Shown: piece by piece, positions 28,398-49,274 of the stretch
Position numbering within the stretch: position 1 is the first letter of the stretch
How the letters are laid out: each line of letters starts with the position of its first letter
Sequence record: MT446412.1
Strand: one strand, 5' to 3'
Length of the DNA stretch: 64,000 nucleotides
From: Escherichia virus TH41
The notes under the pieces: model-generated
Database searches by the model: none
The model's input: only the letters and a program-made list of their open reading frames with translations
Told to the model about the DNA's origin: nothing
Made by a program: the position numbers and the translations under genes

Positions 28398-30140
28398 TTA
28401 GCCAATGTCAATCCTCGAACCATCAATAGTATATTGACCAGATGCAATAGAACTCATTGTTGACATTGTTTCGGACCAATTGCCAGCCACGGTCATATCA
28501 ACGTTTCCATTAACGGACCATTTGACATTACCATTTACCGTATAATCATGGTTACCTTCGACAAGAGTTTTTGCGTCACCTTTAACAGTTATTTCAGCAT
28601 TACCTTCGACCAGAATACTTACATTACCTTTGACGATAATTGTACCGTCACCTTCGATAGTTTTGGTTTCATTCCCACGAATATGAATGCTTTCGTTTCC
28701 ATCGGTCTGACGACGAACGTTAGCCATATTATAATAGGTTTCATCACCACCAACGTTGACTTTATTATTACCACCAACGTAAGTACTCGAATCGCCCTGG
28801 GTCATATAATAACCATCAGCTACTGTCTTCGAAGTCTTACGACCATCTGGTGCAACTTCCTCATAGGAACCGGTTGGATGAATCAGTCGATAACGTTCTT
28901 GTCCAGGGGTATTATCGAATTCCTGAATATGACCGCCTTCAGTTTGCATTGTCTGCACGTAAGGATATTCGCCCTTGTAACTTGATTCTGGCTCTTTAAA
29001 TAGAATCCTTGTATCTTCTGGGGTCCACGGGTCGGCTGGGTCAGAATTTGCAGGGGCTGCAAAGGTTTGAATCATCCTATATGAACGCCCTTTAAATGAC
29101 CTTTCTTTAGGGGCCATAATACCATATGATTCCATATTACCGGTAAGGATAATCATTGATACCCTTGATGCACGTCCTTTAGTTTGGTTAAACCATACTG
29201 AATTACGAGCTTCCTCAAATGCCTTTTTATAATCACCTACTAACATTGCGCTAAGCATACCACGGAATTTAGCCAATCCACCCAATCCCATTTGGAAAGC
29301 CATGTTTTCAAGAGCCATTTGTCTCGAACGGTTTTCTTTATTGTAAACTGGACCCACAACACTATGCCGGCCTATATCGTTTTGGACTTTTTTAAGGTCT
29401 TCTTGGAATAATTTAGAGGCCTCGTCCATTGATATTGCACCAGGGTTGCCTTTAACTTCACGGCCTATTTGATTAGATAATATTTTGTTTATTTGATTCA
29501 TATCTCTAATAGGTTGTGGCGTAATTAAGTGTCCTATACCTATAGTAGGATAACCTTCGGTGTCCCAATATACTTTCAAACGAAGACCTTCATCACGGTG
29601 AAGCATATTTTCAATTGTGAAATTAGGATTATCATCTGGCTTAACTTGACTCAAATCAAGGCCATCGGGGTTAATACCAAGGTCAAGGTTTGCATCCTGA
29701 ATTACGTTCGAAGTTGCATCGTAACCGACCTCACCGCCTCGGTTGAGCGCAGCAGCATCATTACCTACATAAAGTGGATATTGTCCTGTGGGGTCAGAGA
29801 AGCCTTCGTTGGGATTTGCTTTTTGTCTTGAGGCTGAACCATACGTACCAATAACAAGTCCGTTGAGTTTCCACTTGTCTAAAAAGTGACCATATACCTG
29901 AGTCCCTGGCACCATACCAGTCATTGCAGTTTGAATACCAGAAACTGATGCAGATGATGTTGGCATCAGTACAGACATCCATGGCAGGTCTTCAGTTCTG
30001 ATACCTTTTACAGGTCCTTGCGATTTCTCATATGGATGCATACCCCATACACGGACACGGACTCGACCTTGTTGAAGTGGGTCCATTCGGTCTTCGACAA
30101 CACCGACGAACCAACTTACATTATCTGACATATTAATCAT
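28398..30140 (-). CDS. 5: Baseplate hub / cell-puncturing protein with tail lysozyme domain gp5
   Basis: 580-aa ORF; lysozyme-like motif KVYWDTEGYPTIGIGHLI; C-terminal repeated beta-strand region (VEGN/VKGD repeats). Confidence 0.9.
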   Translation of the reverse strand: MINMSDNVSWFVGVVEDRMDPLQQGRVRVRVWGMHPYEKSQGPVKGIRTEDLPWMSVLMPTSSASVSGIQTAMTGMVPGTQVYGHFLDKWKLNGLVIGTYGSASRQKANPNEGFSDPTGQYPLYVGNDAAALNRGGEVGYDATSNVIQDANLDLGINPDGLDLSQVKPDDNPNFTIENMLHRDEGLRLKVYWDTEGYPTIGIGHLITPQPIRDMNQINKILSNQIGREVKGNPGAISMDEASKLFQEDLKKVQNDIGRHSVVGPVYNKENRSRQMALENMAFQMGLGGLAKFRGMLSAMLVGDYKKAFEEARNSVWFNQTKGRASRVSMIILTGNMESYGIMAPKERSFKGRSYRMIQTFAAPANSDPADPWTPEDTRILFKEPESSYKGEYPYVQTMQTEGGHIQEFDNTPGQERYRLIHPTGSYEEVAPDGRKTSKTVADGYYMTQGDSSTYVGGNNKVNVGGDETYYNMANVRRQTDGNESIHIRGNETKTIEGDGTIIVKGNVSILVEGNAEITVKGDAKTLVEGNHDYTVNGNVKWSVNGNVDMTVAGNWSETMSTMSSIASGQYTIDGSRIDIG

Positions 30141-30739
30141 AATGACTTCTCCATCTCACGGATTAATGCCGAAATAAATGATTCGATATCATTAGGGTCG
30201 ATTATCTTTATTTCTCGTTTATATTCATTTTTGCGAATAGCGTCTTCATAGATATCTACTGCAGCTAATGGACCTTCATATTGTGGGTACAATTTATTCT
30301 TATCACCTTTATCATACCAGGTGTACGGATTATCAGGATAAGAAACAAGATTCCAGAATTTTTCACCATCTTCATTTACATGATAAAGAACCTGATTACC
30401 ACCTATATTCGAATAGCGTTGAATTGATGCCTGATACGATGATTCTTGTGAACATATCCAACCATAATAAGGGTCATAGATATTATTAAGCATAAGGAGA
30501 ACCCAATAGAGTTGCGTGTTTCCATAGAGCTGGTATGCAAGTTCTTCAGGTCTCGGAGCTCCGGCGATGTAATGCGTTTTCGGTGTATAATTAACCGCAA
30601 CCTTATCAAAATAGGCACGATAGTTTCTGAAGATGTCAGTCATCGGGATGCTTAAGACGTCTTCTTTCGTTAATGATGCCGAGTTTTTTCTGATTGTTTT
30701 AGCATCATAATCAATTGGGTTAAAAAATGAAAAAAGCAT
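30137..30739 (-). CDS. 53: Baseplate wedge protein gp53
   Basis: Start placed at internal ATG (MLFSFFNPIDYDAK) with GGAGG SD; track start at 30769 is TTG. Confidence 0.75.
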   Translation of the reverse strand: MLFSFFNPIDYDAKTIRKNSASLTKEDVLSIPMTDIFRNYRAYFDKVAVNYTPKTHYIAGAPRPEELAYQLYGNTQLYWVLLMLNNIYDPYYGWICSQESSYQASIQRYSNIGGNQVLYHVNEDGEKFWNLVSYPDNPYTWYDKGDKNKLYPQYEGPLAAVDIYEDAIRKNEYKREIKIIDPNDIESFISALIREMEKSL

Positions 30740-30748
30740 AAAGCCTCC

Positions 30749-30759
30749 ATTTATAAATA
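30749..30759. promoter_or_regulatory. Overlapping divergent late promoter boxes for genes 53 and 4
   Basis: Plus strand TATAAATA at 30752-30759 (29 bp upstream of gene 4); minus strand TATAAATg at 30749-30756 followed by GGAGG and the gene 53 ATG. Confidence 0.45.
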
Positions 30760-30787
30760 AGTATATCAATATTTATTAGGAGGCTAT

Positions 30788-31237
30788 ATGGCATACTCCG
30801 GGAAATTTAAGCCCACCAATATAGAAAAATATAAGGGCGACTGGAAGAAAATACAATACCGGTCAAGTTGGGAGGCTTGGCTGATGAGATGGCTCGACAA
30901 CCATCCGAACGTTGTTCAATGGGGTTCTGAGACTGTGATTATTCCATACTTCTGCAACGCGGAAGGGAAAAAGCGCAGATATTATATGGATTTCTGGGTT
31001 AAGTTCGATACGGGGCAACAGTTCTTTTTCGAAGTTAAACCATTAAAAGAAACAAGACCCCCAACCAAACCGGCCAATAATACCACTGCGAGTAAAAAGA
31101 GATTTATTAATGAGATGTACACCTGGAGCGTTAACTCTGACAAATGGAAAGCTGCGCAAGCTACCGCGGATAAGATGGGTATAACGTTCAGGATAATCAC
31201 TGAAAACTCACTGAAAAAATTAGGATGGAAAGGATGA
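30788..31237 (+). CDS. 4: Head completion protein gp4
   Basis: 149-aa ORF; synteny (divergent from 53, followed by 2, 3, 1 as in T4). Confidence 0.8.
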
Positions 31238-35733: not shown

Positions 35734-35790
35734 GTGTACTTTTAAATGGGATAGTGTATGATTATCCCATCAACTACTGAGGAGAATAAA

Positions 35791-39481: not shown

Positions 39482-39510
39482 TTTTACTTCCAGATGGGAT
39501 AGTGTATAAT
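39482..39510 (+). promoter_or_regulatory. Early promoter / stem-loop cassette
   Basis: TTTTAC -35-like, 17-bp spacer, TATAAT; gggatag...tatccca inverted repeat flanking -10. Confidence 0.45.
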
Positions 39511-39552
39511 TATCCCATACTGAGTTACCAAATAAACAAACGGGAAAATAAA

Positions 39553-46904: not shown

Positions 46905-47137
46905 GTATTGCAATTTATATTAAATCCGAGTCATGTGATTCTTATCTGTATTCCTATGACACTGGAACATCAGAAGAGAAAATAAAAGAAGATTTAGAAA
47001 CTGACTTGGATATGTTCCGACCAATTTCCGATTACATGATTCAAGTTTCTGATAGTGAAAGCCCTTCATTGGAAAATAGACTTGAATTTTTAATGAGCGA
47101 TATTTTTAACCAATCATGGAAACGAGACGATGAGTAG
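46901..47137 (+). CDS. Hypothetical acidic protein (78 aa)
   Basis: ATGA overlap with upstream gene. Confidence 0.45.
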   Translation: MSIAIYIKSESCDSYLYSYDTGTSEEKIKEDLETDLDMFRPISDYMIQVSDSESPSLENRLEFLMSDIFNQSWKRDDE

Positions 47138-47588
47138 GAAAAACAAGGTGAAAGAATTATCTGCTGGCATTATTTTCATGACTGAAGATAAAGAGTTATT
47201 CATGGGTCGTGTGACCGGTTCTCGTAAACCAGGTATGCCTGCACACAAATGGGACATCCCTAAGGGTCATGTTGAAGCTGGTGAATCCCCGATTGAAGCG
47301 GCTATTCGTGAAACCGAAGAAGAAACTGGGTTTACCCAATACGACCCGGCATTCTTAAAAGACCTCGGTGAGTTCCGTTATTCAGATAATAAAAACCTTC
47401 ACCTGTTTTTGTATACGGTTCCTGTCGAGCATGAACAATTCAGGCACAGTAAATGCTCTGCCTATCATACCTTCCCGGATGGCAGTTCGGTCCCAGAGTT
47501 CGATGCATTTGCTCTGATTAAACCGAGTCAATGGCAGTACGTGATGGGTAAATCGATGTACAAGGTAATGACTCAAATTTTCGGATAA
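47130..47588 (+). CDS. nudE: Nudix hydrolase NudE (e.1)
   Basis: Nudix box GHVEAGESPIEAAIRETEEETG; position immediately upstream of lysozyme e. Confidence 0.85.
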   Translation: MSRKNKVKELSAGIIFMTEDKELFMGRVTGSRKPGMPAHKWDIPKGHVEAGESPIEAAIRETEEETGFTQYDPAFLKDLGEFRYSDNKNLHLFLYTVPVEHEQFRHSKCSAYHTFPDGSSVPEFDAFALIKPSQWQYVMGKSMYKVMTQIFG

Positions 47589-47591
47589 TAA

Positions 47592-47613
47592 ATACCCCTA
47601 TATAAGGGGGTAT
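47592..47613 (+). promoter_or_regulatory. Hairpin sequestering the lysozyme e ribosome-binding site, with late-promoter-like box in 5' arm
   Basis: ATACCCC-tatataag-GGGGTAT hairpin ending 1 nt before the e ATG; aATAAATA (7/8 of TATAAATA) at 47587-47594 overlapping the 5' arm. Confidence 0.5.
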
Positions 47614-47614
47614 T

Positions 47615-48103
47615 ATGAATATATTCGAAATGTTACGCATAGATGAAGGTTGTAAGTTGGATTTGTATAAAGATACAGAAGGCTTTTGGACCATCGGTAT
47701 CGGGCAACTGATAACTAAGAACCCATCGAAAGATGTAGCTCGCGCTGAGCTCGACAAGCTTATGGGTCGTGTTTGTAATGGTCGCATAACCCAGCACGAA
47801 GCTGAAACATTGTTTAATCGTTCGGTCGAAAAAGCTAAAGCCGGAATCTTGAGACACCCTGTCTTAAAACCTGTTTATGATGTACTGGATGAAGTTCGTC
47901 GTTGTGCGCTCATTAATATGGTATTCCAGATGGGTGTTGCTGGTGTTGCTGGTTTTCCTAAGGGTATGCGATTGTTGAAGGCTAAATCATGGGAAGCCGC
48001 CGCTAAGGAACTGGCCGACTCGAGATGGTATAAAGTCCAGACTCCGAACCGGGCTAAACGAGTTATCGAAACTTTCCGCACCGGAACTTTTGACGCATAT
48101 TAG
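47615..48103 (+). CDS. e: Endolysin (T4 lysozyme e homologue)
   Basis: 162 aa; [12 protein letters not shown]...DTEG..TIGIG...[12 protein letters not shown]...[17 protein letters not shown] closely matches T4 lysozyme. Confidence 0.95.
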
Positions 48104-48131
48104 TGTACATCTCCAAATGGTAGGGTTATAA
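48103..48131 (+). promoter_or_regulatory. Early promoter cassette upstream of denV
   Basis: GTGTAC, spacer, TATAAT flanked by taggg...cccta inverted repeat; leader tatcaactacggag. Confidence 0.4.
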
Positions 48132-48158
48132 TGGCCCTATCAACTACGGAGAACAAAC

Positions 48159-48575
48159 ATGACTCGCATTAATTTAACTCTGGTATCTGAACTTGCTGAC
48201 CAACATCTTATGGCTGAATATCGTGAGCTTCCTCGCGTGTTTGGTGCAGTTCGCAAACATATACAAAATGGTAAAAAGGTTTCTGACTTTAAAATTCCAT
48301 CATCTTTTCTTTTAGGAACTGGTCATGTCACCTTCTTTTATGATAAACTTTTGTTCCTTAAAAACCGTCATCAAGAACTTATTGCGGAATGTTTAAAGCG
48401 AGGGTTTAACATAAAAGATATTTCTACCCAAGATTTAAATGATATTCCTGATGAATGGAAGAATGATTATCAACCATCAATCTGGTCAATTGAAATCAGT
48501 CAAGCCAGACTGAATGAGAAAATTTCTCAAAAGCCTACCTGGTACAAATACTATGGGAAAGCTGTGTACGCTTAA
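48159..48575 (+). CDS. denV: Endonuclease V (pyrimidine dimer DNA glycosylase)
   Basis: 138 aa; N-terminus [31 protein letters not shown] matches T4 endo V. Confidence 0.9.
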
Positions 48576-48593
48576 CTAAAAAGGTTGTATAAT
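48564..48593 (+). promoter_or_regulatory. Early promoter (GTGTAC -35-like, TGTATAAT extended -10)
   Basis: 18-bp spacer; overlaps the denV 3' end. Confidence 0.4.
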
Positions 48594-48623
48594 GATTTTA
48601 TCAACCAAACAATGGAATATAAA

Positions 48624-48938
48624 ATGAAAACTTATCAAGAATTTATTACTGAATCTACCCAAAAACGTGTTGAAGGCGGTTATGTCTGGATTGAACAGTT
48701 AACCCCACCAAGTGAAACAAGCACAGGTTCATGGAAAATTACTGTTGATGGTCCTGGCGGCAAACGCAAGACTATTAAAGAAATTAAAGGCTATTATGAT
48801 GAAGCTAAATCATGGGCGGGTAGTCATGTAATGCAGATTAAAATTGCAAATCCGGATAACGTTCATGCAGCAAAAGCATTCCGTCGTATTGGTAATAAAC
48901 TTTATGATGCGTTTTTGCGCGATTTCCCTAAAGCTTAA
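48624..48938 (+). CDS. Internal-protein-like protein with CTS N-terminus
   Basis: Start placed at internal ATG giving MKTYQEFITES. Confidence 0.65.
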   Translation: MKTYQEFITESTQKRVEGGYVWIEQLTPPSETSTGSWKITVDGPGGKRKTIKEIKGYYDEAKSWAGSHVMQIKIANPDNVHAAKAFRRIGNKLYDAFLRDFPKA

Positions 48939-48951
48939 TTAAAGAGACATT

Positions 48952-49215
48952 ATGAAAACGTATCAAGAATTTATTACTGAATCTGCCAAAGCTCCTGCTG
49001 GTTCCTTTAAAGTCCGCGCCTTCGCTGGCGATGCTGAAGACTTTGGCACCATGAAGCGCAATGGTTATTCTTTCTTTGGTGGCGATGGTAAAGAAATTGT
49101 CACATATGCAAAACGTCGCGAAATCGCATTCGTGGTTGCTGGTAAGAAAGTTGATGCTGACGATATTGAATGGGACTTTGAGACCTTTGGTATTGTTTCT
49201 GGCGGTAAAGCATAA
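48952..49215 (+). CDS. Internal-protein-like protein with CTS N-terminus
   Basis: Starts MKTYQEFITES; paralogue of 34791-35090. Confidence 0.65.
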   Translation: MKTYQEFITESAKAPAGSFKVRAFAGDAEDFGTMKRNGYSFFGGDGKEIVTYAKRREIAFVVAGKKVDADDIEWDFETFGIVSGGKA

Positions 49216-49217
49216 CT

Positions 49218-49246
49218 GTTTACTTTATGATGGGATAGTGTATAAT
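49218..49246 (+). promoter_or_regulatory. Early promoter / stem-loop cassette
   Basis: GTTTAC, 17-bp spacer, TATAAT; gggatag...tatccca inverted repeat; conserved leader. Confidence 0.45.
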
Positions 49247-49274
49247 TATCCCATCAACTACTGAGGAGAATAAA

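Follow-up and report, generated by a model that had tools for sequence, protein, structure and literature searches.

The window analysed here, the whole stretch of 64,000 nt of Escherichia virus TH41 DNA (sequence record MT446412.1), carries the lysozyme gene e between nudE and denV, all three of them co-directional on the + strand and arranged in the order nudE-e-denV that is also annotated in Shigella phage SP18 and Escherichia phage VR7. By sequence similarity, the window is assigned to Gaprivervirus, i.e. to the SP18/VR7-like relatives of T4 (Tevenvirinae, Straboviridae), the region around the e leader being 95.6% identical to SP18 and 93% identical to VR7. The e protein is 100% identical to that of SP18 and 67% identical over 162 aa to that of T4, with E11, D20 and T26 kept, and sequence comparison identifies the gene as a true orthologue of T4 e. 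The genes upstream of e are likewise co-directional, tightly packed and overlapping, and the gap between nudE and e measures 26 nt, into which a late-promoter-type box, a hairpin and the Shine-Dalgarno sequence are packed before the AUG is reached. The features of the locus are as follows.

47130-47588, + strand: nudE, an e.1-type Nudix hydrolase gene (open reading frame; Pfam NUDIX, E = 2.6e-16; called nudE in the SP18 and VR7 annotation)
47587-47594, + strand: late-promoter-type box AATAAATA, with A at -13 instead of T, matching 7/8 positions of TATAAATA by sequence
47591-47599, + strand: 5' arm of the hairpin, AAUACCCCU, the anti-Shine-Dalgarno strand in the predicted folds, missing from the predicted late transcripts
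47600-47605, + strand: hairpin loop AUAUAA, 6 nt, in the predicted fold; 47600 is the predicted late start (by the -13 to -6 rule)
47606-47614, + strand: 3' arm of the hairpin, GGGGGUAUU, by sequence and folds, ending directly at the AUG (47615)
47615-48103, + strand: gene e, T4-type lysozyme (endolysin) of 162 aa (Pfam Phage_lysozyme, PF00959, E = 1.3e-12)
48159-48575, + strand: denV (Pfam Pyr_excise)

The junction between nudE and e reads ...ttcggaTAATAAATACCCCTATATAAGGGGGTATTATGaat... and encodes a stem of 9 bp, made up of eight Watson-Crick pairs and one G-U pair. The initial annotation had described a 7-bp stem, and its two strands are indeed found where it had put them (ATACCCC at 47592-47598 and GGGGTAT at 47607-47613), only that the pairs A47591-U47614 and U47599-G47606 extend the stem at both ends. 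The same annotation correctly put the Shine-Dalgarno sequence into the 3' arm, which indeed encloses the whole of it (GGGGG, 47606-47610), but it let the arm stop 1 nt before the start codon; with U47614 paired, the arm abuts the AUG. The 31-nt hairpin element alone has a predicted folding energy of -13.1 kcal/mol. The near-consensus late box overlapping the 5' arm, also proposed earlier, is present as AATAAATA, and its first two bases are at the same time the last two of the nudE stop codon TAA (47586-47588). The late start predicted from this box, 47600, is the first base of the loop and lies 6 nt past the last base of the box.

What difference would such a start make to the accessibility of the ribosome-binding site? 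In a 160-nt read-through RNA from the window, opening the segment from the Shine-Dalgarno sequence to the AUG is predicted to cost about 14.7-14.8 kcal/mol, and in RNAs starting at 47599-47601 the predicted cost is 2.4-2.5 kcal/mol. The values predicted for T4 are similar, namely about 15.2-15.3 kcal/mol for the read-through RNA and 4.6 or 1.9 kcal/mol for late RNAs from its first or second box, respectively. Across the 22 distinct leaders of a first set of relatives, the corresponding ranges are 12.0-18.7 kcal/mol for the read-through RNA and 1.4-8.2 kcal/mol for an RNA starting 6 nt after the box. In these 22 leaders the predicted start strips the Shine-Dalgarno region (-12 to -4) of 5-7 of its 6-9 predicted partners, and in the window a start at 47600 strips it of all six. 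Among 104 crude gene calls in the window, none has a more stable local hairpin at its ribosome-binding site than e, which ranks third for the energy needed to open that site (14.8 kcal/mol; median 4.5).

General statistics for the hairpin and the box provide only moderate evidence. Across the 64 kb of the window, a search for perfect stems of 8 bp or more yields 26 records, corresponding to about 18 distinct hairpins, and shuffled sequence yields about 10 records; with this roughly 2.5-fold excess the stem alone is not decisive, and the z-score of the 91-nt fold that contains the hairpin is no better than -2.07. As a string, AATAAATA shows no enrichment (5 copies in the window versus 7.6 expected); the box is therefore not significant by itself, and box statistics were dropped as an argument. 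The perfect consensus TATAAATA, by comparison, is enriched, with 17 copies found versus 5 expected. The case for function is built on position and conservation, not on box or stem statistics.

As to position, no sequence other than AATAAATA comes within one mismatch of TATAAATA on the + strand over the 2.1 kb upstream of e. The AATAAATA box lies 20 nt from the ATG, and most other intergenic late boxes in the window lie 9-31 nt from theirs; 11 of these 14 other boxes are perfect TATAAATA. Late boxes of T4 span -13 to -6; the T at -13 is poorly conserved in T4-like phages, where A and T are both common (PMC1524935). Out of 50 listed late sites of T4, 32 match the consensus perfectly and nine carry A at -13, which is the commonest natural variant (PMC2988020). 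The bases that directly follow the box of the window, CCCCT, are G+C-rich, whereas the sequence after the box is usually A+T-rich in T4 late promoters (PMC2988020), and the promoter may therefore be weak. The identity of the -13 base tends, in the leader sequences compared, to follow the stop codon of the upstream gene: a box that overlaps a TAA stop codon has A there (as in the window, SP18, VR7 and others), one that overlaps a TGA has G (PEi20-like phages and leaders L028-L030), and T is found where the stop codon sits further upstream (T4, JS98-like phages and leader L007). Leaders L009, L019 and L025 are exceptions, with A at -13 and no overlap with a stop codon.

Transcription entering e from upstream is also part of the picture. 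A scan of the + strand detected no terminator-like site between nudE and e. Sigma-70-like promoter matches upstream occur at chance level (21 found versus 23 expected), so that it is only from synteny with T4 that we infer early read-through into e. No regulatory feature is annotated at the site of the e leader in the GenBank entries for SP18 and VR7. The leader is matched by no Rfam family model either: in a scan of 47300-47900 with E values up to 10, the best hits scored 15-18 bits against gathering thresholds of 56-101 bits, with E = 3-9. When a covariance model of the leaders was run against the window, the e leader was the sole match, at 50.1 bits, and no second copy appeared, although the score is circular in that the window sequence is itself part of the model.

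The arrangement just described bears a close resemblance to the leader of T4 gene e, as the initial annotation had proposed; that architecture is documented for T4 (PMC3014915, PMC2988022), and the T4 leader aligns with the element of the window. The T4 mechanism was demonstrated by McPheeters et al. (1986, Nucleic Acids Res 14:5813), whose work is summarised in PMC3014915. According to that review, the longer early transcripts that extend into e form an inhibitory structure that cuts lysozyme synthesis about 100-fold, whereas transcripts from late promoters immediately upstream, which do not contain the 5' part of the structure, are translated (PMC3014915). Closely related T4-type phages are predicted to have leaders of this kind, each with a late promoter where the 5' strand is encoded (Uzan and Miller 2010, PMC3014915, Fig. 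5). The T4 leader sequence is TATAAATAccttcTATAAATActtaGGAGGtattATG, also given as tttaatttTATAAATAccttcTATAAATActtaGGAGGtattATG. In T4 as in the window, the leader belongs to the same gene, has nudE/e.1 as upstream neighbour and immediately precedes the AUG; AATAC from the late box (the first one in T4) opens the 5' arm, and the Shine-Dalgarno sequence plus UAUU makes up the 3' arm. The two differ in that T4 has two perfect TATAAATA boxes, one overlapping the 5' arm and one in the loop, whereas the window has a single box with A at -13, the loop box of T4 having decayed there to TATATAAG, with three mismatches. In the window a GGGGG Shine-Dalgarno sequence faces CCCC, whereas T4 has GGAGG with CUUCC-type pairing, and the loop has 6 nt in the window but 8-12 nt in T4. 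Between the two genes there are 26 nt in the window as opposed to 37 nt in T4, and it is as a consequence of this shorter gap that the nudE stop codon overlaps the box. Finally, the T4 leader is known from experiments, whereas that of the window is known from its sequence and predicted folds.

The same regulatory logic has been described for I-TevI/II/III, segB, mobE, soc and others (Edgell et al., PMC2988022). At T4 soc, gene 49, I-TevI/II/III and segB and at Aeh1 mobE, a late gene lies in an early or middle transcription unit, and its ribosome-binding site is hidden on long RNAs and freed by a late promoter in or beside the 5' arm (PMC2988022, PMC3014915). These leaders belong to genes and sequences unrelated to e; they are analogues rather than homologues of the e leader.

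Relatives of the e locus were collected from IMG/VR, metagenomes and GenBank records, and the leaders counted comprise the 22 distinct ones of the first set plus a few variants from a pattern scan and a metagenome scan, about two dozen altogether. Wherever the e protein shares about 65% identity or more with the query, each distinct leader has an NATAAATA box and, after it, a hairpin in which the Shine-Dalgarno sequence is paired, and this series is shared by JS98-like, RB69-like, PEi20-like and other T4-type phages. The initial annotation had held that the logic persists despite substantial divergence of the protein; the persistence is borne out by every distinct leader, but the divergence is better called moderate, given the 67% identity between the window and T4. 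Lysozyme loci at or below 56% identity, outside Tevenvirinae, have neither box nor hairpin, and PMC3014915 likewise reports no apparent leader structure for Aeh1, 44RR, 25 and 31.

The sequence, length and register of the stem vary by clade. The stem is AAUACCUUC/GGAGGUAUU in T4 and AAUACCUCCU/AGGAGGUAUU in JS98-like phages, and RB69-like phages have a 12-bp version. In PEi20-like, PG7-like and Klebsiella-phage-like leaders it is CUCCUAUC/GAUAGGAG, the AUG-proximal GGUAUU having changed to GGUCCU and the stem having grown on the loop side (in DNA letters, CTCCTATC/GATAGGAG, where GGTATT became GGTCCT). Judging from these sequences, the stem can shift its register while still covering the Shine-Dalgarno sequence. 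The CCCC/GGGGG stem was found in the Gaprivervirus clade only, among the leaders recovered. The core ATAAATAC of the box, on the other hand, is invariant in 18 of 18 distinct aligned leaders, including those from clades in which it is unpaired. The combination of a stem that shifts its register with a ATAAATAC that is kept even when unpaired points to two separate constraints, one on the pairing of the Shine-Dalgarno sequence and the other on the promoter box.

Three alignments were made. In A1, a MAFFT alignment of all leaders, clades that are one C short in the 5' arm are mis-registered; A2 is a register-consistent subset of eight leaders, which was used for the pair counts; and A3, a covariance-model alignment, includes reverse-strand rows and was hence left out of these counts. 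In both A1 and A2, ATAAATAC, GG-GG-T and ATG do not vary among T4, the window and 16 further leaders. In A2, 92% of the cells are paired, versus 46-59% when the partners are slid. At the third position of the Shine-Dalgarno core, seven of the eight leaders have a U-A pair where the window has C-G, both sides having changed in a compensatory way, and two neighbouring stem pairs alternate between C-G and U-G. Covariation in the e leader thus appears real but thin, consisting, in these sequences, of one double-sided change in this clade together with the register shifts. A 103-nt block (47574-47676) is invariant in six Gapriverviruses, in which 20% of the surrounding sites vary; since denV contains similar invariant blocks, of 100 and 81 nt, this invariance at the genus level was not counted as specific evidence.

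Taken together, comparative, thermodynamic and literature evidence supports the interpretation of the element as a lock. It is most probably, with a likelihood that we put at roughly 0.8, the Gaprivervirus orthologue of the translational-control leader of T4 gene e, in which a late box would free a hidden ribosome-binding site. Transcripts started upstream would run through nudE into e and carry both arms of the 9-bp hairpin, which would bury the GGGGG and abut the AUG, keeping 30S subunits off so that no lysozyme is made early. After the onset of DNA replication, RNA polymerase modified by gp55, gp33 and gp45 would recognise the A(-13) box AATAAATA and initiate at about 47600, the first nucleotide of the loop; the resulting late mRNAs would be devoid of the anti-Shine-Dalgarno strand, their ribosome-binding site would be open, and lysozyme would be translated. 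The anatomy of the element, its predicted energetics, its conservation and the compensatory change are shown by the analysis; early read-through, an active late promoter at the box and a different translation of the two RNAs are what we infer for the window by analogy with the T4 experiments treated in reviews.

The predicted folds also contain a second, outer helix of 9 bp, the arms of which are listed here tentatively and with weak support.

47579-47587, + strand: 5' arm of the possible outer helix, UUUCGGAUA, in the last codons of nudE (predicted folds)
47622-47630, + strand: 3' arm of the possible outer helix, UAUUCGAAA, in codons 3-6 of e (predicted folds)

In the window, the duplex has a predicted energy of -9.4 kcal/mol, which is equalled with 11% of shuffled upstream segments, and it is thus not individually significant. 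When 13 clade representatives were compared, however, cognate upstream and downstream segments formed duplexes with a mean of -10.7 kcal/mol versus -8.6 kcal/mol for swapped ones (permutation p = 5e-5). The signal is strong only in some clades (represented by L025, L022, L031 and L007) and was absent from T4, JS98-like and RB69-like phages in this comparison of cognate with swapped duplexes. It is conceivable, though rather doubtful, that a two-tier lock operates in several clades of Tevenvirinae, and possibly here, with a second helix between the last codons of the upstream gene and codons 2-7 of e that would co-evolve with this upstream gene and be missing from late transcripts.

Could the hairpin occlude the ribosome-binding site without AATAAATA being the main late route, so that the read-through RNA is opened instead by translational coupling at the nudE stop codon or by RNA processing, or a late RNA starts elsewhere? 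Such a view would draw on the non-consensus form of the box, its lack of enrichment as a string and the G+C-rich segment behind it, and coupling in particular could appeal to the nudE stop codon, located only 3 nt before the 5' arm, and to the outer helix, which would join the 3' end of nudE to codons 3-6 of e. Nonetheless, given the established geometry of the ribosome, one that has the stop codon in its A site should open no more than some 2-3 pairs at the base of the stem, which would leave the pairs holding the Shine-Dalgarno sequence intact. Doubts about the box are also hard to reconcile with the invariance of ATAAATAC in 18 distinct leaders, even where it lies outside the stem; moreover, A at -13 is a common natural variant of late promoters (PMC2988020), and late promoters at this very position are the documented route in T4 (PMC3014915). 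We therefore regard a main route other than the box as unlikely.

Still less probable is a hairpin that serves mainly to terminate transcription or stabilise a 3' end, whether of the nudE operon (+ strand) or of an antisense transcript (- strand). The upper part of the stem is indeed rich in G+C, and its - strand version (CCCCTTATATAGGGG, then TATTTATTAT) passes a terminator-like scan; the + strand version, however, has no U-tract and fails the same scan, the regional count of such sites shows no excess (7 found versus 6.0 expected in shuffles), and the - strand owes its T-rich tail simply to the late box, whose complement it is. Furthermore, every open reading frame of at least 95 aa between 40 and 56 kb lies on the + strand and there is no - strand late box above 30777, so that a - strand terminator would have no obvious client. 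A Rho-independent terminator was accordingly rejected as a candidate, being uncalled on the + strand and serving no gene or late promoter on the - strand. A terminator would also leave unexplained why the 3' arm coincides with the Shine-Dalgarno sequence in all relatives. It is hardly credible that the complementarity is incidental, i.e. that the Shine-Dalgarno sequence and the C-rich segment are independent and the hairpin has no regulatory role, even if hairpins of at least 8 bp arise some 18 times in the window and the z-score of the fold is modest (-2.07). Pairing is kept in every distinct leader in spite of differing stem sequences and registers, with GGGGG met by CCCC in the window and GGAGG by CUCC or CUUC in relatives; the hairpin is the strongest local one at a ribosome-binding site among 104 genes; and the T4 structure lowers lysozyme synthesis by about 100-fold (PMC3014915).

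The mechanism and its conservation in T4-type phages are already published, and the window differs from what is known in small ways only. Its additions are modest, comprising the compensatory change from an A-U to a G-C pair in the Shine-Dalgarno core and the -13 base that is often A or G at an overlap with TAA or TGA, respectively; the leaders compared further suggest that a single late box suffices in most clades, and the possible outer helix is another addition. For annotation, the element marks the true start codon of e and a probable late start at about 47600. What the design explains is how the gene of a lysis enzyme could stay silent inside an early transcription unit until late in infection, so that the host would not be lysed prematurely, and the Gaprivervirus case mainly confirms that this design is under selection across the subfamily.

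The Shine-Dalgarno hairpin of the lysozyme gene e is surrounded by a predicted outer helix, which would pair the final codons of the gene upstream with e codons 2-7 (in the window, 47579-47587 with 47622-47630). Its sequence varies from clade to clade. An outer helix is also predicted at the homologous positions of eight other distinct e leaders from T4-type relatives (L003, L007, L014, L022, L025, L028, L031 and L034), and cognate duplexes outperform swapped pairs (permutation p = 5e-5, 13 clades). The helix of the window is individually not significant, and none is present in the e leaders of T4, JS98-like and RB69-like phages.

At the nucleotide level, there are zero substitutions among six Gapriverviruses over 103 nt (47574-47676), a block that spans the leader and e codons 1-20, synonymous sites included, while 20% of sites are variable in the surrounding nudE-e region in the same comparison. 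Similar invariant blocks occur in denV (48411-48491 and 48511-48610), and mosaic recombination, rather than RNA structure, may be the cause of the block at e. The base at -13, the first of the late box, tends to vary with the upstream stop codon in the window (47586-47594) and at the homologous sites of leaders L003-L034: it is A where the gene upstream ends in a TAA that overlaps the box, G where the overlapping stop codon is TGA, and T where the stop codon sits further 5', the exceptions being L009, L019 and L025, which have A without such overlap. The upstream gene itself is nudE in some clades only, as C-terminal sequences differ among clades. The Shine-Dalgarno sequence of e (47606-47610) reads GGGGG in the window versus GGAGG in T4 and therefore does not contain GGAG, the target motif of the T4 RegB endoribonuclease in early mRNAs.

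Downstream, denV directly follows e in the window (region 48104-49215), whereas in T4 the two are separated by ipIII and ipII, which encode internal proteins; the ip-like genes of the window's clade are located 3' of denV (ip10 and ip7 in VR7). Several small downstream ORFs (48624, 48952 and 49481) share the N-terminal peptide MKTYQEFITE, as expected of internal head proteins with one shared targeting sequence. A hairpin with a -10-like TATAAT in its loop (for example, TGATGGGATAgtgtataatTATCCCATCA) recurs at 35746-35770, 39494-39518, 49228-49256 and, upstream of denV, ~48119-48143, the last two overlapping sigma-70-like promoter matches; these hairpins presumably resemble the promoter-early stem-loop cassettes of T4-type phages.

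The logic of the e leader is matched between two divergent genes lying 48 nt apart (30737-30790), where a near-palindrome, GCCTCCAtttataaataagtatatcaatatttattAGGAGGC, fills the intervening region and carries a late box on each strand:

30137-30739, - strand, gp53-type baseplate wedge gene
30752-30759, + strand, late box TATAAATA, inside the near-palindrome
30777-30770, - strand, late box AATAAATA, inside the near-palindrome
30788-31237, + strand, gp4-type head closure gene

The Shine-Dalgarno sequences of the two genes are complementary to each other, and the region has a predicted fold of -18.1 kcal/mol (z = -3.45) and predicted opening energies of 16.1 and 14.2 kcal/mol. Any transcript that initiates outside the region and runs into it would have its ribosome-binding site sequestered.
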